From: Tricharina praecox
Taxonomy: Eukaryota
Assembly: GCF_024521635.1 (NCBI RefSeq)
Contig: NW_026250403.1
Span: forward strand, 2,914,001-2,978,000
Direction: 5' to 3'
DNA length: 64,000 bases
A model generated the notes under the pieces. The model had not been told where the DNA came from, did not search any database, and saw only the letters and a program-made list of their open reading frames with translations. This document shows positions 18,901 to 36,600 of this stretch, piece after piece; positions within the stretch are counted from its first letter, which is position 1, and each line of letters starts with the position of its first letter. Both the position numbers and the translations under genes were made by a program.

Positions 18901-21900
18901 TGTGCGTAAAATCTTGTTGTCGGGAAACGGCTGCCTCATGGAAGTCATTGATGGGTTTCTCCAACCTCTTAGGTTTGCAATCGATACTTAGCTGAGGTAT
19001 AATCGGTCAAGTAGGATTCCGAAGTATGTACGGGGATATATCCGGTCTCACGGCGAGCTGTGTAAAGAATTGTTTCATGAGAGAGTTCTGCGGTGCATGC
19101 TGCGAGGTTGAGTGGAGGTGAGGTGGTTGAGAAACACAGCGGAGCTAACGAACCCATCCTGTGTTACCGAAGGCTCAGAGAAAGAAGTGCGAGAAATTCC
19201 ATACGCCTTCCTTGCCCGCACAGACGCACTCTTTCCGAATGAGGAATTGCTCTGGAAGCTTGCCGTTTAAATGAAAGTGGTAGGTCATGATGATGTTTGC
19301 TTTGCCCAGAAGTGGATTCGGGGAGGAGAGGAGGGTCTATCATCGACCGGATCCGACCGCACTTCGTGACTTGCCACCCCTTGATCCCAAACTCTTCACC
19401 TTTTACAAGGCACTGCTGGTACATACGCATATAAAAATCACCATCTCCAAAATAGGAGTACTCTTATTGCACACAGAATATGGAATCTAGGTAATGGGAC
19501 CATCAGGATTATCACTGGTGACAAGCATGTGTGCCTAGGAATGCGTCTTCCTCATCAGACATTGGGCGTTCTTGTATGTATGCGTCCAGAGCTGCTGGGA
19601 CGCTGTATCGGCTATCTGTTGATGCTCGCAGTCTTTAGCCTTAGCCACCTGGTGGCAGTTGTATGATAGCTCGGGGCATCTCCTTCCTCTCGGTTTTCGT
19701 CCCACGGAGGAGTGCATCCAGCTCAATCAGCAATTCAGTCTCCAGCTCAGCGGCGGCGGCAGCGCGGGGCCACCATCTCGTCCCCCCTTCGCCATCATAA
19801 TACAGCAAATTGAATGGAGCCAGTCGATACACCGGTAGAATGAAACCCATGTAGATATCATCAGAAGCCTAGAAACGTATTTTCCTATACTGGATCCAAC
19901 ATCCATTTAGTACCGTGTTTCCTTGACTGCCAAACATTGAACAATATATCCTAGGAAAAGAATGTGTCGCCGAGGCTTGAGATGGTAAAATGTGGTGTGT
20001 CGTGGGTGGGTGGGGTGATTACCTAGCTGCCGTTGTCATTGTGAGGATGGAAGGTCACGATACCTACTCTGCTAGAGAGTACTCTATATCCCGCTCCTCC
20101 GCAATACCTAAGCAGTAATTTTCTGGGCAAAATTGCCAGATCTGGCCATCTCGCATGTTTGGTATATATCAGAGTAGGCAAATGTCGACCCCGAGTAGCT
20201 GACAGACCCTCTGGTGTTTCGGTTATGCAGAGGGCACCGCTCCCTGATCGAAGGAGCACAGTCGATTGCTCGAGCAGAGTTGTTGTTTCGTTCGAACGAT
20301 GGGCAGTCACTCACTCCATTCACTAGCTGCTACAGGTCTCTTTAACTCCCCCGATCTCAGTTACCAGTGACCTTGTAACTACGCCCTTTGCTCGAATTTT
20401 GCTTCTTTGCGGAAAGCATGAAGACCCTGCGTTGCTGTCCTGGTTATGCTTTTTTGGATATATATCCCGGGAATGGCAGTTCATATGGCTATCCTACTAC
20501 TATTGGCAGCAATGAGAGTTTATATCCAACATATTGAGTACAACCGAAGGCCATAGAGTGCTCAGAGTACCTTCCACTCGTAGCAGGCATAAAGTATCCG
20601 GAATATTTTAGCGTGATGGAGTTTCCGGGACATGCGAATCTTTGCTGCAACTGGGAATTTTGGATGAAACATTACTGCTTAGGAAAAGGCTTCACGCCCA
20701 GGAAAAGGGCTGTATGTCTGGATACTAAAAGCATGCCACGAGCACTCTAGGTGAATAATATCAAGTGCTGCATAAAGTAAAGTAACTACAGCGGTGAGTG
20801 CGGAGCGATATGTAACATCTTCACCTAGCGCAGTACCAGAGTAATTCAGGTGTTCGGCTTGAGACCGGTGTGTTTTTATTTTTTTATTCCCAGCGTCAAG
20901 GAAGGATTCTCACCGCCTTCCTCAATCTCTGTCCCGGCCACTGCCACTATCCACCGGGTCCATTCGGCTGCTACTGAAGTCTGAAGCTACACATCGACCT
21001 CGAAAAAGGCATGTTAGCCATCGTTTTGGCCGCAAAAGAAAACCTCCTACATAGCCGGCCAGTAATGGCACCGAAAGTCCGCTAGCCAGCGACCAACTTG
21101 TTCCGCAGGTCCGTCAAAAGCAACCTGTGTACGACCGCCTAGAATCTGAAGTGATACGGAGTGCTCCTGAGCCAGGAAAGAGATGCTCCATACCGGTTCT
21201 TGTCGCCGTCAACTGCGAGGCTGGAGGATCCGGGGCCGCTCTGGAGTATAGTACCTATAGTACCACCTCATTGATTCCCGCCTGGCCCGGGTCCCTGCAT
21301 GGCATCTGATCGACTCGTTTCCTGTGCGGTTGGAACCAGATTCTCTTGGCTGTCTGGCAGCGGAACACGGTCGAAAGCCAGCCGCCGGTTGGGACTTCTC
21401 CAACCGCGGGAAGTTGTGGTCAACTATCGGCGGGCCGGACATGGCAAGCCACCAGACCTCTGTGGGGCCGGGACAGCATACAAAGGTGGACATTGCGCTG
21501 GTACGTAGTGCTCCTGTTGATCTTCGGCTTTGCCATCTTCGGCGCTGGCAGAACAACCCTAGAGCCCCTTCGGGGAGGCTGCAGTTCGACGCACTGCGCG
21601 GTGGGGACCGACTAGCTCCAGGAGCGAGGTGTGCCAATGGAAGTTCGATTCTGGGAGGCTCGCGGTGATACATACCACGGTCCACTAGGTACCATGCTAC
21701 ACACACGCACAGAGATGTGGCGGGGCACTCAGATCGGTATCTACTGGCCAATAGCATCACGCAAACCCCGCAGACCAATGGGAAAAAAACAAAGTCCGCA
21801 AGCTTCGCACTTGGCGGCACGAGGAACATCACGCAACCGAAGACGCAAAAGCTAGTTAGCCAGGTCGTTTCAGTGCCCGTTGCCTGCGGATTCCTTCCCG

Positions 21901-24900
21901 TGCTGGTGTGTTCTGGTTTCGGGCTCGGTCGCGTCTTGGGGGGGCGAGTTGCCGACGCGAGGGCTTCCCATGGTTACGAGTGTCGACCCAGGCCGTCCCT
22001 GGCGTTGCGAACCACTCTTGGGTCCGTAGCGACGCGGGGAAGTGCAAGAAGAAGTTTGGACGGTGATGACAAAGCCCGAGACGATGCTCGAGGTAAGGAC
22101 CAAAGTAAGAAGTACCTGGTACTCGAGGGATGTCCTTCCATACCAGTCCTCCACCACGCAACCACGGCCATTTGCACGCAACGCTCGCGTCCTCTCTCCC
22201 CCCTCCCTCCGTTTCGATCGTCCGCCGTCAGAACGCCTCCGGGCCTCGTTCCATCGCCAGTGCTGGGCCTTTTATTGCCGTTAATATCGAGGTGGGGACA
22301 GCGGAGTTGCTTAAACGACAGCCATGACTGCATGGAACACTGCTCAAGGTACCGCATGTGTACCAGCCACTTCTGTCCTCTGTCCCCGCCGCCGCCGCTC
22401 GCCTTTCCAGGGTTCTTCTAAGTTCTGCTTCGAATTCCTTCTCCTTCCGTTCGCACGGACCACCAGTGTCCACCACCATCTCATCCCGCCGGGTTGCACC
22501 TCCATCGCGCTCGTCTAAGAGAAGGACCTATCTTGCAGGCTTACGCCCACCACCACCAGTCGGTCGGCCCCATCCCCTCCCCCCCCCTGCCTCGTGGTAC
22601 TACTCTACGGACTGCTCCTCCTGAAGTTGACCCCAGAGTCTGAACAGACCCCAGCGCGTGTTCTTCGTCAGATCCGTACATACTATACAATACAACCCAC
22701 GCCCCCCCCACCCACCCATCATCCCCCCCCGGCGCTGATGCTGTTTTGCTGCCGCTGCTCGAATTGCAACTTGCAAACCACATAGACTACCCTTCCTACG
22801 GACTTATGTACTACTTGCCTACCGCAAAGTCTCACTCACATCCACCTCGCGCTCACTCGTTTCTCGGATCACGCACGCACGCACCTCCCCTCCCACCACC
22901 CCCCACCATCGCATACCCGCCCACCACCCACTATCGCACTGTACCACTACCACTACTATACTGTCCATAGAAATCGAGTCGACGAGCAGCAACAGTTGTT
23001 CTTTAGTGACGGCCATCCCAACCCTCCATATCACCGCACGTACCACTCAACCCCGTCGAACGGTCGCCGCCTAGAATAATAATAATTATTCCATATTCCC
23101 CCCGCCCAACGGCCGCAAACTCCTACCTGTACTTAGCTTCGACCTGCGCTGCCGAGTCGTCCGATCTTTCCCGCCAGCACGCCTGAGCCCAAACATTACC
23201 GCATTCCCGCGATCCTTTGACAGACGTCTGCTGGAACGCATTAGGCCGGCTGCGACAGAAAGAGAGAGAGAGAACACAGGCACACGACAGACAGCGTAAG
23301 TAAAAACAGTCCAGGAACGGACGGGGGCGGGGGGGGCGTGCTGCGCGGTTCGAGTTTTGAGTGCGAAACTGGGATCTTGAGTTGACGACTTTTTGTTCAT
23401 CAGACAGCCTCTCGGAACACCACGCCCTTAAGACGCACTTCCGCATACTACCACACACGTAACCGCCTGCGCCCAAGCTTATTGAATCTGCGGGCAGAAC
23501 GAGGCGGGTGGCTAAAGTTCTTTCAGCCAGACACGACCGGGCGAAACTGCGCGCGTCGTTTTTCTGCATTTGTCGCCGAGGAAGGGTGGGGAAAAGACCA
23601 CGCCAGTCTGGTCGCAGGTTCTCCAAGGTGCTCTGGAATTTTTCTTTCAGAGGAGAAATTTTTACCCAGTGTCTGTGCGGTTGGGCTTTCGGATTGAGAG
23701 TGGGGATTTGCTCATCGTTTTTTCTGCGGCGAACGTTGCACAGATTGGGAACTCGTCACCCGAAAGCGTTCGGACAAGAGTTGCTTGTTCCGTTTGACGC
23801 GGTATCCTGCGGATTGTTCGACGGGTGACCTTGTGTGAACTCTTGTCAGGTTGGAGGAGAAGTGAAGCGAGCGAGTGTGGTGGAAAGATCACCGGTCTAG
23901 GCTCTACTACCTGCCCGCCTTTCGGAGGTGACGATATTAATCGACGACTTCGAATTTTTCGAAGTACCTGCAACTCAGCACCACCTGCGAGTTTTTGCGG
24001 TGCTTGCTAGAAGATCTCGGGCGTATTGGGCTTTGGGTCAGAGCTTGACACACTAGGGCAACGGTCAGGAGGATTTAGATCAGGACGGAACATCCCACGA
24101 CGAAGACGACCGCTGAAGAGATTTGCAAGCGAGGCCGACTGCCAAAGGATTTTGAAGCATACATTATATTTTTACCTTTGGCGAGCAACAATCGGCGAGA
24201 AATTCGGTGAACAAGAAGCCGACCAGGCAACCGGAAGAACAACAAGTAGTGTTCAATCGATAACCGTCACGTCAGATTATATCAGTCATCTCCGCCATCC
24301 TGCCAAAAGAACCGACTCCGCCTAACCCGCCGCCCCCCGCCTCCCCCTTTGGAGCAGGTTATACGATATCCGGATTCTGTACATACCTCATCGTCATCAT
24401 CATCACAGCGCATTGTTCCGTCCACAGCACTAGCTTCACATCATCTGCACCAACGTACATACATCCACACACAACTCGACCCCCCCAAAGAACAGAGTAA
24501 CGTGACTTGATTTCGCTGCGGGTTGCCGATATCCCAAGTTGCGCAGACCCTTGCCAACGAACCATTTTCTTTGACGAAGTTCATCCCATCTGCCTCGCCT
24601 TGTTTGCCAACTCCTCCCCCGCCCCGCTCCTCCGTCCAAGCTCAAGCTCGGTACCTTGCATTCGGCATACCCACCTCTGGCTTTGACGTCCCCGTCTCAA
24701 GCAGAAATTGGGTATTCTAGCGGTTGCGGCTGGTTGGCGTCTCGGCTTCTGCACTTGGCTGTCGGGTTTTCTGTGCACATTACCGCACCCTGCTGGTTCC
24801 CGTCGATAGCTGGCTCGACAGGATTACCCTTAATATCTACCCACGCCGAGCCAAAACTTTGTTCACATTGTGGATTCGGCTACTCTGCCACCGGTGAACT

Positions 24901-25042
24901 TGTTGATATCGTCGCCAACATTTTAGGCTTCTCTCGCCGACAGAATACCCTATCCTAGACACCCCTCGGCACGGTATACTTCTACCCTGCGCCAGTACCA
25001 GTTTTCTTCCTCCGTCTTCCACATCTCAGACCAACTTCACTT

Positions 25043-26788
<1,746 letters not shown>

Positions 26789-27699
26789 ATGTCTTGAGAA
26801 TATCCAGCTGATTATTTTCCTTCTCACCGGAATGTAGTGCTGACGGATCCATCCGTTGTTGCCACGGTGTTCAATGTTGACGGGGAATGTTTTTCTTTGA
26901 TTTGATCTGATTTTTTCTTTCTTTTCATCTTAACCTTGGGGCGCGTGTGCTTGCTGCATTTTTTTTTGTTGTGAATAGATCGGGTCGGTGCAATTGCCTT
27001 ACGGGTAACAGGTCTTTTTGGGGTGTCGTCTGTTTTTTCTTTCTTTTGTCTCTTTTTTTTTCTTGGATTCTATTTTGCTTTTGGGGTGGGGCTGATGAGC
27101 ACAGAGTCTGTCGGCCATCCTCCTCTTCTACTTAATAATTGGTTTCCCCTCTGTAGGAATGAAGCATTATTATTCTCTATCTCCTCTCTCTATCTATCTC
27201 GTGGTCATGTGGTTGGCTGGCTTTGTGTCCGGATTTGAATCGTTGGAGTTTTTTGTCTTGTCTTGTCTTGTCTTTCTTTTTGGCGGGTGCTTGCTTGCTT
27301 GCTTCTCTTGCTTACTTGAGTACTTGCTTGGGGTAATGACGCTGACGATGGCAAAAAGTTTGGTTGTTATGGGATAATGTCTGCGTTGCGTTTGCGTTTG
27401 CTTTTTTTCTTCTTCTTTTGCTTTCTTTGCTTTCGTTTCTTCGGCTCGGCTCGACTCTATTCCCGGGGCTCAAGTCGCAGTTGCTGAGTGCCGCGTGCGG
27501 GGATTGGGTTACTGTGCCTTATTTTATTATACCCTATGTGCTTTAGCTTTGGTCTGTTGGGTGTGTCTATTGGGTGTGTTGGTGTGTTTATTGGGTTTTG
27601 GGAGTGTATGTTTGGTGTACTTAGGTTTGGTGCATGTATGCCATGTGTGGCGGCGGCCCGCGTGTGCAGTGATTGGATTAGGATTATACGTCACTAATT

Positions 27700-27774
27700 A
27701 TTGAGTTACCGATTGGGTTGTCTATTGAGTTACCGATTGAGTTACCGATTGGGTTACTAAGTATTGGGTTATGG
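27700..27774 (+). repeat. 12-bp tandem repeat ATTG(A/G)GTTACCG, about 6 degenerate copies
   Basis: Units start at 27700, 27712, 27724, 27736, 27748 and 27763. Confidence 0.8.
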
Positions 27775-27781
27775 TAAAGGA

Positions 27782-27826
27782 AAGGCTCTCGGCACGAAGG
27801 TTCTCGGCACGAAGGTTCTCGGCACG
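27782..27826 (+). repeat. 15-bp tandem repeat AAGG(T/C)TCTCGGCACG x3
   Basis: Three adjacent near-identical units. Confidence 0.9.
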
Positions 27827-27947
27827 AATTTTGTGAGCGAAATATGTGAACCGTGAAGCTTTCGGGCGTGCTCTGGCGTGCTCCGTGATGAGGGATGCTG
27901 CGGACGATGCTTCCCGTGCGGGGTGTGTACCTATGGTGACATGCAAA

Positions 27948-27952
27948 CTCTG

Positions 27953-28025
<73 letters not shown>

Positions 28026-28030
28026 CTCTG
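27948..28030 (+). repeat. Hexanucleotide microsatellite (CTCTGG) about 14 copies
   Basis: Perfect run directly visible. Confidence 0.95.
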
Positions 28031-30663: not shown

Positions 30664-33600
30664 ATGTTTAGTCAATCCAATACTGGTGGCTTTGGAGGGT
30701 TCGGCACCAACAATAACACAAATCCCGGCACGGGTACCACTGGCAGCGTGTTCGGCTCCGGCGGTGGCTTCGGTCAGCAGCAACAACAGCAGCAACAACA
30801 GCAGCAACAACAACAGCCTGCGGCTCCAGGTACGTTCAGCCCTCGATACTTCTCTCCTTGCGTTCACAGGGTTCATCGCGCTGCTTGATGCAGAGGCCCA
30901 TCCCATCTGGTGGGGTTGTTACGGCTGGCCGTACGAACGTGTCCTTTGTGAGGATAACGCGTCGGAAAAAAAGTCCTGGGGACATATCCCGACCTGATGG
31001 CAGTGATGGTGGCTGCGACGATGGTTGAATGAACGGAAAGCCATCCGCTTCTTTTCGGTGGATTCAACGCGCTCGTATGCGCGCGCGTCTTCCTGATCGA
31101 ATCCACTCGCTCGACCGATCGCTTGGCTTCTGCAATGTTCACGACAAGAGACACTGACTGACATGATCTTTCCGCGCTTTACTCAGGATTTGGTAGCGGC
31201 GGTGGCTTTGGTGCGACAAACACCGGTGGCGCTTTTGGTTCTTCGACGACTCCTGCTTTTGGTGGTGCTGCTCCCGGAGGAGGTAAACATTCCACCCCCC
31301 TCCAGCCATTTTGTCGCGAGGGAAATCGTCATCTGTCGCGGTGGTGGCTTTGTCGTGCGCAATCATCATCGGTGGTCTTCCCTGATCGATGACTCTTGCG
31401 CCTTCCGGTTACACGGTGTACAGCCTTGTTGAAGAGTCACCACCGCCAACTTGATACCCACTTTCCCTCCCAGATGCCTGTACCTGATGTGGTATATGAT
31501 GAGCTAACTTCCCGCGCTTTTCTTTTCTAGGATTCGGTCAGGCTAGTAACGCTTTCGGTGCAAAACCTGCTTTCGGTGCAACAACAACTGGAGGTGGACT
31601 CTTTGGATCGCAAGCCGCTGCACCGAATACGAACCCTGGATTTGGCGGAGGAGGAGCCTTTGGAAACAACACCGCGACGTCTGCATTTGGCGCTACCAAC
31701 ACGGGTGCTACAGGCGGAGGAATGTTCGGAAATGCTGGAAAGCCCGGGTTTGGCGGTGTCACAACCACCACTGGTGCGACGGGAGGTGGTATCTTTGGGA
31801 CGTCCGGCGCTGCTACAGGCACTGGCGCTTTCGGTGCGCCTGCCGGTGGTAATGCTGGAGGTATTGGATTTGGTGGCGCGGATACCTCTGTTCTGCCTGT
31901 GAACGGAACCGCGACCACTCCCTACACCGTTACGCAAGAGAAGGAAGCTAGTAGCTCCTTGATGAACCACTTCCAGACCATTTCGTTCATGCCGGCCTAT
32001 AAAAACTGGTCACTAGAAGTAGAATTCTCTCTATGAGTGTTCTTGCGCGATGAATGCTAACAGCCGTCAAAGGAATTGCGTCTGCAGGATTATGCTACCG
32101 GAAGACGCTACGGCAACTCATCCGGCCAATCTGGCGCGTTCGGTTTCTCTGGGTTTGGCGGAGCGAATGCGGCACCAGCAACTACTGGAACCGGGTTTGG
32201 CGCTACGAACACTGGGGCCGCAGGTGGCGGTGGTTTGTTTGGAAGTGCCAACAATCAGCAACAGCCTGGTGGATTCGGAGCAACCAGTGGTGGTGCATTT
32301 GGAGCTACCAACAACAATGCGGCTGGCGGAGGTCTCTTTGGAGCGAAGCCTGCTACGACCGGTGGATTGTTTGGAGCTAGCAACACGGGTACGGCTGGAG
32401 GGGGTCTGTTTGGATCGAATCCTGCTCCTGCTGCTGGTGGCTTCGGCAATACTGGCAATACTGGGGCGTTTGGCAATAATACCGGGGGTGCATTTGGGCC
32501 CGCAACCCAGCAGGCTAAGCCTGGATTCTCTTTCGGTGGACCTGCTGCAACCACTCCCACAACTGGTGGCTTCGGAGCTACACCTGGAACTGGGTTTGGA
32601 CAGCAGAATACTGGTGCTACCGGTGGATTGTTCGGTCAGCAACCCCAACAACAACAGCAACAGCCGGCCACTGGATTCGGAGGCCAGGCCGCGGGCACTG
32701 GTTTCGGCGCTACCGGAGGATTCGGGCAGCAAAACACACAGCAACAGCAGCAGCAGCAGCAGCCGTCATCCTTTGGCGCATTTGGGCAGCAGCAGAACAA
32801 TCAACAACAACAGAAGCCTGCTTTTGGCGGCTTCGGTGCGACATCCGCGGCCCCTGCTACAGGTGGTGGCCTCTTCGGTAACCAGCAGCAAAACCAGCAG
32901 CCTCAACAACAACAGGCTGGTGGACTTTTCGGAGCCAAGCCTGCATTTGGAGGAGCTACGACTAATACTTCTGCCACTAGTGGTCTGTTCGGAAACAACC
33001 AGCAACCTCAGCAGCAGCAAACTGGTGGTCTGTTTGGAAACGCCCAGCCGTCTCTGAATACTGGTGGCGGTGGATTGTTTGGAAACACCCAGGCTGGCGC
33101 CACCAACACTGGCGGTGGTGGACTGTTTGGAAACAATCAGACAAAGCCTGGCGGTTTGTTCGCGTCGGGTGCACCTGCGCAGAATACGGGTGGTGGATTG
33201 TTTGGCGGTTTGAACACCACTACCCAGACTTCTGGCGGTTCATCCCTGTTTGGAAATCAGCAGCAGCAACAGCAACCGCAGCAGCAGTCGAGTCTGTTCG
33301 GCAACACCCTTGGCCTTGGTCTTGGTGGCCAACAACAGCAGCAACAGCAATTCACAACCTCGATTGCGGATTCGCCGTATGGAAATGCTTTGCTTGGTAC
33401 TATGGGTCCAGGACAGCAGAACCAGCTGGGCCCGATTGCGACTCCTCTCGGCTCTTCGACCACCAAGAAAGCAGCAATGATTCCTCACCACAAGATTGCT
33501 CCCAGGCAGCCTGCTCTCACGCCCCGCCTCGGCAACAGCTACTCCAGAAGCGGATCTCCGTTCGCTTCGTCCACCACGACTACCACTTCTCTGAGTGGAT

Positions 33601-36600
33601 CCAGGGGATCGTTCTCGTCCAACAACAAATTGAGTCTCTTTGACGGCGACGACTCGGCTTTGAGTGCGAACGCTTTCTCTTCAAGCACTAGTAGTCGTGC
33701 CGCCGGGTTGAAGAAGTTGGTCATCGACAAGAAGATCAAGGATCAGGACTTGTTCACAGACAACAACGAGCCACGTGGTAGGGCGGACAGCATTAGCAGT
33801 GGACCGGGCAGCGCGTCTCCTGTCACTACTAAGGGTATCTTGAAAAAGACTGTCAGCTTTGACGTGGCTGCTGAGAACAAGAGGGATGAAGACTTATTCG
33901 GTACTGGCAGCGCTACGCCTGCTAAGGCGACTAGTGGCCCTGCACCCACAGCCGAGGAGCTCGGATTCATCAGGCGCACTCCTGAGCGGAGACGGGCTAC
34001 GGATCTTGACGAGTCTCCTCAGGGAAGTGCTGTATCCTCTAGCAGCGCCCCAGTGCTTGGTAACGAGGTTGCTCTTGTTCAGCAGCCTAGTGAGGAGCGC
34101 GCTCACGGTACATACTGGATGGTTCCCAGTGCGCAGAAACTTCGGTCCTACACCCGTGAGCAGCAGAAGAAGGTCATCGGTCTTACTGTCGGGCGTCGCG
34201 GATATGGTTCCGTCCGCTTCGACAATCCTGTGGATATCTCCGGTCTTCCTTGCGAATTTGAAGATATCCCCGGCACCGTGGTTATCTTTGATACCAGAGT
34301 TTGCACTGTCTACCCAGAGGGGTTGGAAAAGCCCGCTCCTGGAAACGGCCTCAACGTTCCTGCCACTATTTCCCTGGAGGACTGCTTCCCCCTCACGAAG
34401 AACCAGCGCGACAAGATCGTCGATCCCGAACACCCTAGGTACATCACCCACATTCGCCGGTTGAAGGGTATTAAGGATACCGAGTTTGTCGATTACCACC
34501 CCCAGCAGGGTCTTTGGATCTTCAGAGTCCGACATTTCACCACCTACGGTCTGGTTGACAGCGACGATGAAGAAATGGAGGAGGAGATGACCTACGATTC
34601 CAGCTTCGCCACCAGTCAGGGAGACGACTCCATCTTTGGTCCCGACGACAACACTGTTACCCCGAGACCGGCAATTATTACTCCCGCCTCACTCATGATT
34701 GATGACGAGAACAGCATGGATGCCGACATCAGCGGTATGGATTCCACCTCCGGGTTGGATGATACCTTTGACTTCAAGAGGCTCCCTACCGCTGTTGGTT
34801 CTCTTGCACGTAGAACTGCCCCCGCTACCGCTCAACAGCACCCGGGATCTTTTTTAGGCGAGGACGATGAGCCCATCAATTCATCGTTTGACGAAGACCA
34901 GTACACGGAGGAGGAGGGTGATGTGACCATGACTGGTGAGTCTTTTTTAGGGGAAGGCTCCGTAGGCAGTGTTGAAGAAGATGAACCTGCGGAGCCCCTG
35001 TCGGAGGAGGACGATGCGGTGGAGGAGTCGACAATTATCCTGGACGACGACGAGGATACGACTGGTGCTCTTAACGAGGAATCACCCCAGAGACTGGCTC
35101 TTATGTCCCCGGAGAGATCACCAACGAAGTCGATTGCGGCGACGCCTTCAAAGGCGTTGGCATTAGGCAAGGACTGGACTGAACAGCTTAATAATACGAT
35201 CAGTCCTGTAAAGAGACGGTTCGGTGGCGAGAGCTTCTTTGCCGGTGGAGGTGGGGGTAGATCGCCCAGCCCTCGGAAGGCGATGATGGAGCCTCTCAAC
35301 TATGGACTACTTGATTTGGCCAACGACCTTTACGGAAGCCCTTCGAAGTTGAACGGCAGTGCACGCAGGGATACGGGAAGGACGAGGAAACGGGATGAAT
35401 TTGAGGTTTGACTTTCTCATCCGCTTGCTGTGGTTTAACGTTTTTTGCTATTTTACGATCCTATGTTTTGTTTTTTCAATTGAATTGGGATCTGTTCGAT
35501 GTTGTCCTGTCCGCTGTAGTTGTAGGAATAAAAATGCTGAGACATGTGTTTGTGTGCAATTCTAGTCACTCGGCGATTCGAAATTTAGCTCGGAAGGGGT
35601 ACGACCCATCGCCAAGAAACCGATTGCCTTGATTGCCTACTCCGGAGAACCCTTTGATTACAATGAGTTGGAGGGCGATGACCAAGCCTGGCGTAAATCC
35701 GTGAGGCCGGCGTGGGGACCTGAGGGAATCATCATCCACATGGGTCAATTGGAGGCATTGCGTGTTCGGAAGAGTGAGGGAAGTTTGAGCATCGCAAAGC
35801 TGAACTTCGGCACCAAGTCACATGTCGTTCCTCGGCCTTTGGAACTTCAAATGCGCAACACCGACATTAGGCTGGATGAGTTTGGCATTCCATTCGCCGA
35901 GGTCAAAATGGAATTCCTCTTTCAAGAGTTCACTGAACTGCCTTGGACGCGAGATTCTAAGGAACAACACGAGAGGAATGTGTGGAGGCTTGCGAGCGTT
36001 CTTTGGGACCCGCTCGACAACATTCCCATTGTTGACGACATAGAGCTAGAGTTCTACCTTCACGAGAAGCGTCGAAAGGAACTTCTGTCTCGCTTCCTCC
36101 AGGAGCTTGTGGAAAATGATGCCGATCTCCATGCTCAGACAGCGCCTACTGCTGAAGAAGCCGCTTTTGCACATCTCACTGCATACCGTATCGAACAGGC
36201 GTGCTCGGTGCTGATCGATGCTCAGGACTTCAGGCTCGCTTCTCTGATTCCTCTGATTGGCGGTGATCGATCTGTCCGACAGTCGATTCGCAGCCAGATC
36301 GATCACTGGAAGGGCAAAGGTGTTCTTAGTGAGCTCACGATCCCGATGCGTGCGCTTTATGAACTCCTTGCTGGGGAGACTTGCTTCTCTGAAGGAGTCA
36401 AGAACCCTGCCGAGGATGCTACGGCCGATATCTTCTTTGCTGATTATTTCGGCCTGGACTGGCGGAGAGCGCTGGCGTTGAAGTTCTGGTACGGATGTTT
36501 CGAAGAGGAGAGTATCGGTCGTTTAGTGAAGAGGTACGAAGAAGACTTCTTGCGATTCCCCGAAAAGGTGGCGCGGCCTACGCCTTGGTATCTCGACGCA

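Follow-up and report, generated by a model that had tools for sequence, protein, structure and literature searches.

The stretch of DNA analysed here (the window) comprises 64,000 nucleotides (nt) of Tricharina praecox (NCBI RefSeq assembly GCF_024521635.1, contig NW_026250403.1, positions 2,914,001 to 2,978,000 of the forward strand), and positions are counted from its first letter. On its plus strand lies a gene for a protein with four C2H2 zinc fingers (25043–26788), and this gene is preceded by an interval without a single ATG on the same strand (22809–25042). We find that the interval is transcribed and spliced as part of the 5′ leader of the C2H2 mRNA, and that ATGs are depleted upstream of orthologous genes as well. 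An earlier interpretation of the DNA, made from its letters alone and here called the sequence-only reading, had proposed an exceptionally long 5′ leader purged of upstream AUGs (uAUGs).

The C2H2 gene and its family

The gene has four exons (25043–25586, 25642–25781, 25844–25944 and 25999–26788; gene model and RNA contigs) that encode 524 amino acids; the protein contains a poly-Q region and a tandem array of four C2H2 fingers. The Pfam family zf-C2H2 was found in four stretches of the orthologue P0003 (E value 8.7e-21), and the first finger alone, as encoded by exon 1 of the window's gene, matches the same family weakly (E 0.0016, 19.2 bits; cut-off 25.2). A search with exon 4 resulted in 94 longer homologues and 158 homologues of similar length, 120 of which were listed. 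The closest named relatives among the matches listed are Pezizomycetes, namely Tuber borchii (56%), Geopyxis carbonaria (53%) and Rhizina undulata (52%); the identity of exon 4 to Geopyxis, Tuber and Rhizina proteins is 52–57%. Across 14 aligned homologues the finger block is almost invariant and the C-terminal region is conserved too, and the family extends through the Pezizomycotina. Furthermore, the N-terminus MDLTNILN is common to the Pezizomycete orthologues. The start codon at 25043, at which the sequence-only reading had placed the end of the ATG-free interval, is thus conserved. By sequence similarity, we assign the gene to a pan-Pezizomycotina four-finger orthogroup that has the N-terminus MDLTNILN. 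The next AUG (25112) lies in frame, 23 codons past 25043; leaky scanning to it would therefore yield a protein without this conserved N-terminus.

No gene symbol for the family was found among the homologues listed or in the atlas search, where the names are generic. The labels of the homologues are automatic ('zinc finger protein 58', 'C2H2 finger domain' and some spurious mentions of KRAB/SCAN or PacC). A literature search for 'zinc finger protein 58' together with 'fungus' found nothing, and the homologue, atlas and literature searches revealed no characterised member of the family.

An ATG-free interval ends at the start codon

On the plus strand, the ATG at 22806 is followed by the next one at 25043, so that 2,234 nt (22809–25042) are free of ATG. 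The full count thus agrees with the sequence-only reading, whose manual scan had missed none. To estimate how many ATGs should be present, we used a first-order Markov expectation, which gives 21.3 for the interval. The sequence-only reading had assumed a uniform composition and expected about 35; this figure was too high, but the conclusion that ATG is depleted holds. The dinucleotide-matched null that it had proposed as a check was also run: in 5,000 dinucleotide-preserving shuffles of the interval the mean was 21.3 ATGs (standard deviation 3.7, minimum 8), and no shuffle was without ATG (0/5,000). The Poisson probability of zero ATGs is 5.7e-10.

The trinucleotide CAT, which is ATG on the opposite strand, occurs 38 times in the interval compared to 33.6 expected; it is as common there as had been claimed. 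Since CAT is not depleted, the depletion of ATG is strand-specific. Among the 64 trinucleotides, ATG is the most depleted one in the interval (z −4.6; runner-up z −1.8). Over the whole window, ATG and CAT are about equally frequent (989 and 984). We judged the frequency of such ATG deserts from the 64-kb window and 445 kb of related loci. In the window, no gap of any of the 64 trinucleotides exceeds the desert in length, and the next in rank is a gap of 1,703 nt for TTA. The second-longest ATG gap (1,062 nt, 32317–33379) lies within a GLFG-repeat coding region, and the next non-coding ATG-free runs that end at plausible start codons have 821 and 483 nt. The desert is not a composition effect.

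The upstream region is a transcribed and spliced leader

To study transcription, we placed contigs of two public runs (X1 and X2) on positions 21000–28000. The record labels both runs only as 'RNA?'; we accepted them as RNA because their contigs are spliced, and only RNA gives spliced contigs. In X1, a single contig of 4,550 nt consists of 22772–23295, 23404–25585 and the coding exons and continues to 27593. In X2, a single contig of 4,517 nt has the same layout and reaches from 22899 to 27694. Both match the window with 0 mismatches. Four GT..AG introns have been removed from the two contigs, three of them in the coding region, with exactly the modelled borders, and one in the leader. The leader intron has 108 nt (23296–23403, plus strand), and the joint 23295->23404 is found in one contig of each run. 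The GTAAGT near 23296, which had been put forward as a candidate donor, is therefore real and used as the donor of this intron. From the orientation of the introns, we conclude that transcription through the desert is in the plus sense.

The transcribed leader (22772–25042) has a spliced length of 2,163 nt when measured from the X1 end (22772) and of 2,036 nt from the X2 end (22899), which are contig ends and not mapped transcription start sites (TSSs). Splicing of the leader creates no new ATG. The mRNA is about 4.5 kb long, of which the coding region takes up 1.6 kb. On its 5′ side, the desert begins (22809) between the ends of the two contigs, at a distance of 37–90 nt. Because the limits of the ATG-free zone are the zone of the contig ends on the 5′ side and the start codon on the 3′ side, this zone coincides with the transcribed leader. 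The roughly 2.3 kb upstream of the gene, seemingly intergenic, are thus a transcribed leader, and the spliced contigs across the desert in two runs bear out the proposal of a very long leader purged of uAUGs. Two soil metatranscriptome runs (X3 and X5) gave no usable coverage of the leader.

The 5′ end of the leader

The leader begins in a C-rich zone, with a GC skew of −0.31 to −0.45 over 22250–23249 and a C-rich repeat at 22704–22730. The sequence-only reading had described a C/T-rich, core-promoter-like zone at about 22560–23100. A C-rich zone is indeed present; however, its 3′ part is included in the transcript from 22772 onwards. The remaining tract (22560–22771, plus strand) lies directly upstream of the contig ends and contains a TATA-like ACTATACAATA near 22682; its sequence and skew suggest that it may be the core promoter. 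A 3-nt periodicity of C, as in CNN-repeat binding sites, was absent from the C-rich 5′ part in 6/6 segments (p 0.24–0.75).

The longest contig, that of X1, contains a sole AUG upstream of the main start codon. This AUG opens an upstream open reading frame (uORF) of 54 codons that ends with TAG (22806–22970, plus strand). It lies 34 nt inside the end of the X1 contig, in a poor context (cttATGt), and outside the X2 contig.

Depletion of ATG upstream of orthologous genes

The sequence-only reading had suggested to examine orthologous loci. We scanned metagenomes with the alignment of 14 homologues and found 80 loci, of which 14 have a match that starts from residue 1 on an ATG. The counts are based on the 10 of these loci that have at least about 1.1 kb of upstream sequence; L012 was dropped as a duplicate of L011, and L003, L007 and L016 were too short. 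As L017 and L018 share 1,079 identical upstream nt, the 10 loci represent 9 distinct upstream sequences. The best named proteins suggest affinities to Leotiomycetes (L002, L008 and L017/18), Sordariales (L005), Aspergillus (L044, 75%), Onygenales (L010), Pleosporales (L011) and Lecanoromycetes (L022).

In 7/10 loci, the number of ATGs in the proximal region (up to 2 kb) is below the Markov expectation with P<=0.01. The observed and expected numbers are 7 and 23.2 in L002, 4 and 19.9 in L005, 7 and 15.9 in L006, 8 and 27.5 in L008, 1 and 11.8 in L017, 5 and 21.2 in L018, and 7 and 17.0 in L044. CAT is at expectation at the orthologous loci, and so is ATG in the distal region (−4000 to −2000). 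The proposed check thus shows a strand-specific upstream depletion that is significant in most loci, even if most of them keep some ATGs. Furthermore, when both strands are searched for ATG- or CAT-free runs, the longest run of a locus is on the plus strand and no more than 2.8 kb upstream of the gene in 9/10 loci, the exception being L022.

In the full set of 80 loci (444,989 nt, both strands), 18 runs have at least 600 nt; 16 of them are on the strand of the gene and 15 are upstream of the match. Ten of these 15 are in loci that match from residue 1, and the other five are in L019, L029, L030, L050 and L063. L063 matched the finger region only (residues 109–238), and its orthology is thus not established. 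No run in the 80 loci is as long as that of the window (2,237 nt in this count). In sum, the depletion extends over 0.8–2.7 kb upstream of the orthologues in loci that resemble at least five other classes.

Conservation between classes does not extend to the leader sequence itself: no similarity to the window's leader was found outside the close relative L003, and the only blocks shared between loci are 42 nt (L002 vs L017/L018) and 25 nt (L008 vs L017/L018) long. Since the depletion recurs although the leader sequence is not conserved, selection appears to act on an AUG-free path rather than on specific motifs. The 42-nt block is 86% identical and lies at −926 to −885 from the start codon in both L002 and L017/L018, which are Leotiomycete-like and whose leaders are otherwise unalignable; it is a candidate for a conserved leader element.

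In L003, 338 nt of upstream sequence are present, and no ATG occurs in that stretch. The start-proximal part of the leader (24731–25042, plus strand) has 81–82% identity between L003 and the window, compared to 73% at third codon positions, 69% in introns and 67% in the 3′ untranslated region (3′UTR). This comparison is modest evidence that the start-proximal leader may be under constraint.

Further features of the transcript and the window

The 3′UTR (26789–27694, plus strand) is T/GT-rich and at least about 0.8–0.9 kb long, as the contigs reach 27593 in X1 and 27694 in X2. It contains short repeats (ttgtct and gcttgctt), and 27244–27317 is masked as a repeat; other contigs join 27061 to 27399 without GT..AG ends. 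Just past the transcript, at 27940–28030, lies a hexanucleotide microsatellite that reads as (GS)n on the plus strand and as (PE)n, (SQ)n or (AR)n on the minus strand. Upstream of the leader, there are RNA contigs of low depth at 21079–22597 (depth 3–6, vs 54–60 for the main contig) with no convincing open reading frame (ORF). They may stem from a neighbouring non-coding RNA, from weak transcription upstream of the leader or from DNA carry-over.

Two other ATG-free stretches of the window are of note. The second-longest ATG gap lies in an open frame of 1,116 amino acids on the plus strand (32061–35411) that is full of GLFG/FG repeats and that we take to encode a nucleoporin of the Nup98/Nup116 type. 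The likely first exon of this gene begins with the ATG at 30664 (MFSQSNTGGFGGFG...), which follows 483 ATG-free nt. On the minus strand, the 821-nt ATG-free run extends from 10337 upstream to 11158 and ends at an ATG that opens MSKVIRTVKNVTKGYSNTQVKVRN...; this product presumably has an N-terminus of the ENTH/epsin type. The run could likewise be a long leader without AUG. In one homologue record (P0016, Aulographum), ENTH and C2H2 are fused in a single gene model, which hints that ENTH and C2H2 genes are neighbours in other fungi.

A probable scanning leader kept free of AUG

The desert is probably explained by a leader that is scanned from the cap and from which uAUGs have been purged by selection. 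In the proposed mechanism, 43S complexes would enter at the cap and inspect each triplet along the leader of about 2.0–2.2 kb. An AUG anywhere in the leader would intercept 43S complexes on their way and make the mRNA a target of nonsense-mediated decay (NMD); because of these costs, selection would have cleared the leader of all AUGs from the transcription start region up to the start codon. Entry at the cap and scanning are suggested because the loss of AUG is strand-specific and runs from the 5′ end of the transcript to the start codon. Scanning in yeast reportedly stays processive on leaders longer than 1.5 kb, and yeast mRNAs whose leaders are long depend especially strongly on Ded1 and eIF4B. 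In the window, the cap-proximal 500 nt and positions 24260–24680 are poor in G (G 0.11–0.16) and fold weakly, which would favour the loading and movement of 43S complexes. The regulatory feature would then be the length of the leader, not uORFs or strong structure. This length would lower or gate translational efficiency, and it would make the mRNA especially dependent on scanning capacity (helicases and eIF4F activity) or on bound proteins. We infer scanning as the mode of entry and throttling as its effect; the depletion of ATG, its recurrence upstream of orthologues and the transcription and splicing of the leader are observed.

It is unlikely that control is instead exerted through non-AUG uORFs, or through the cap-proximal AUG uORF at 22806–22970, with the length of the leader not being operative. 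That uORF is inside the X1 contig, and near-cognate start codons, to which the sequence-only reading had pointed, are plentiful in the leader (CTG 40, TTG 48, GTG 24, ACG 40). However, the near-cognates are at or above expectation and none of them is depleted, which gives no hint of selection for or against them. An excess of ATA, ATC, TTG and CTG is an arithmetic consequence of the fixed dinucleotide counts. Furthermore, an in-frame stop ahead of the main ORF is not kept in L003, and the AUG at 22806 is within 34 nt of one contig end, missing from the other contig and poor in context. Work on Cryptococcus bears on this AUG: as stated in the parts of that study used here, uAUGs that lie over 20 nt from the TSS inhibit translation and induce NMD, whereas TSS-proximal ones are largely skipped (PMC7049704).

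Internal ribosome entry would mean that the leader carries a cellular internal ribosome entry site (IRES) and is not scanned from the cap, and we consider it very unlikely. The leader is very long, and length is the usual reason for proposing an IRES; according to the relevant parts of the papers on the Candida albicans genes WOR1 and EFG1, cap-independent translation of yeast invasive-growth mRNAs is a possibility there (PMC4552353, PMC6034079). In addition, one segment of the leader (23900–24019, plus strand) folds better than its shuffles (folding-window z −2.77; minimum free energy (MFE) −37.1 kcal/mol, z −2.85; equally stable shuffles 0/200). It holds the perfect 8-bp hairpin ACTTCGAA-TTT-TTCGAAGT (23947–23965) that had been noticed before; this hairpin is present and paired in the MFE fold. 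However, entry near the start codon would need no purge of AUGs from the whole 2.1 kb, yet the desert spans all of it. The segment is also the only one of its kind: the mean folding z of the leader is −0.09, and z is below −2 in 1/35 folding windows. Of the structured elements suggested by the sequence-only reading, this segment stands out (z about −2.8), but the leader overall is not unusually structured. No A-rich tract as in yeast-type elements was found in the leader, which has no A run of 6 or more, a maximum A fraction of 0.38 per 100 nt and 21% A in its last 200 nt. Lastly, the covariance models of Rfam 15 gave no match in the leader; the sole match at E<=1 (19.4 bits vs a gathering score of 61) is on the minus strand inside the coding region.

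There is only a slim chance that two overlapping RNAs, an upstream sense non-coding transcript and an mRNA with a short leader, were merged by the assembler. De Bruijn contigs join overlapping transcripts, so that a contig is no proof of a single transcript, and EFG1 has a long and a short transcript according to the part of the report used here (PMC6034079). However, if a non-coding RNA is never scanned towards a downstream ORF, nothing would drive the loss of every AUG from its sense strand. The depletion is also unbroken up to the start codon and conserved upstream of orthologues, and each run gives one contig of near-identical extent. Finally, chance, by which the desert would be a by-product of base composition, of mutation of the repeat-induced point mutation (RIP) type, or of an antisense or unrecognised coding region, can practically be dismissed: the desert is indeed skewed (C 31%) and the second ATG gap at 32317–33379 is truly compositional, but shuffles never fell below 8 ATGs (local P about 6e-10), CAT is undiminished although RIP would deplete both ATG and CAT, the ORF list contains no long ORF in the desert on either strand (the spliced leader has 47 stops over the three frames, and the longest open frame in the gap is 127 amino acids), and the same strand-specific depletion is found in unrelated sequence upstream of orthologues.

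Several observations weigh against a scanned, AUG-free leader or leave room for variants of it. Contigs cannot show a start, a strand or a single molecule, and a shorter-leader isoform from an internal TSS or an overlapping sense transcript is possible. The ATG at 22806 is part of the X1 contig, so a uORF of 54 codons may be present in the longest isoform. The main AUG at 25043 has a C at −3 (cacttATGg), which is a non-optimal context. At the orthologous loci, ATG is not significantly low over 2 kb in 3/10 cases (8 vs 9.8 in L010, 25 vs 29.4 in L011 and 27 vs 32.7 in L022), even though L011 has an ATG-free run of 803 nt abutting the start; most orthologues retain a few upstream ATGs, and complete purging is thus not universal. 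Lastly, the EFG1 leader stimulates translation and does not repress it, as far as the published part considered here goes (PMC6034079), so that the effect in the window's gene could have either sign.

It is conceivable, although doubtful, that the kilobase AUG-free leader is an ancient trait that defines the family and has persisted since the Pezizomycotina classes radiated, even as its sequence turned over completely, so that length as such, a 'scanning runway', would be what is selected. If this were true, synthesis of the factor would read out scanning or helicase capacity and hence the nutrient or growth state, or the leader would act as a delay element. The orthogroup would then be a natural system to study how 43S complexes traverse 2 kb and how cells make use of this.

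Comparison with known long leaders

To our knowledge, functional studies of kilobase AUG-free leaders are limited to a few Candida regulators. The mean leader length is given as 84 nt for S. cerevisiae and as over double this value for Cryptococcus, and 43% of the Cryptococcus genes with an annotated leader keep uAUGs (PMC7049704, in the parts drawn upon here). According to the same source, uAUGs far from the TSS lower translation and trigger NMD. The leader in the window shares the selective logic of the general depletion of uAUGs from eukaryotic transcript leaders and differs in extent, since about 21 expected AUGs are missing from one leader of 2.1 kb.

Translational control through the leader of a regulator mRNA, as proposed here, is also known from GCN4 and from CPA1/arg-2. 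These systems are the opposite in that they depend on AUG uORFs, whereas the leader described here has none, or at most one that is cap-proximal. We considered uORF-mediated control of the GCN4/CPA1 type and rejected it, as there is no AUG uORF well inside the leader. Another comparison is offered by the A-rich cellular IRESs of yeast invasive-growth mRNAs, reportedly described by Gilbert et al. 2007, in which an unstructured A-rich tract is said to lie upstream of the start codon. Both cases involve long leaders on regulators of fungal growth form. In contrast to the yeast elements, the leader in the window has no A-rich tract, and the purge of AUGs from the whole leader argues for scanning from the cap.

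The closest likeness is to the leaders of WOR1 and EFG1. In the portions of the two reports on which we rely, the WOR1 leader of C. albicans has 1,978–1,997 nt and no AUG uORFs, and other leaders of this species have 2,071 nt (CZF1), 1,139 nt (EFG1), 1,267 nt (RFG1) and 835 nt (FLO8) (PMC4552353); the EFG1 leader has no AUG uORF in strain SC5314 and promotes translation, and the UME6 leader has 3,041 nt (PMC6034079). In the authors' discussion, the mechanism is likely to lie in structure and length and not in uORFs (PMC4552353, PMC6034079). Like WOR1, and like EFG1 in SC5314, the gene in the window combines a 5′UTR of at least 1 kb, as seen from RNA, with the absence of an AUG uORF (22809–25042) and with a product that is a transcription factor, here of the C2H2 type. 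By this analogy, the leader is probably a translational throttle similar to that of WOR1. There are also differences. The Candida genes are from the Saccharomycotina and belong to unrelated protein families, whereas the gene described here is a four-finger C2H2 gene of the Pezizomycotina. Here the leader has a spliced intron, and the depletion is found across several fungal classes.

Our literature search, which covered mostly titles and abstracts and left subscription journals outside its coverage, found no report of a kilobase AUG-free leader in filamentous ascomycetes or for this C2H2 family. The uncharacterised and highly conserved C2H2 factor is a probable target of strong post-transcriptional control. 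Furthermore, long leaders and approximate TSSs can be predicted from DNA alone by means of ATG deserts that are confined to one strand and end at a start codon. Among the long AUG-free leaders of fungal regulator mRNAs, the leader described here is a new, more extreme and evolutionarily conserved case.

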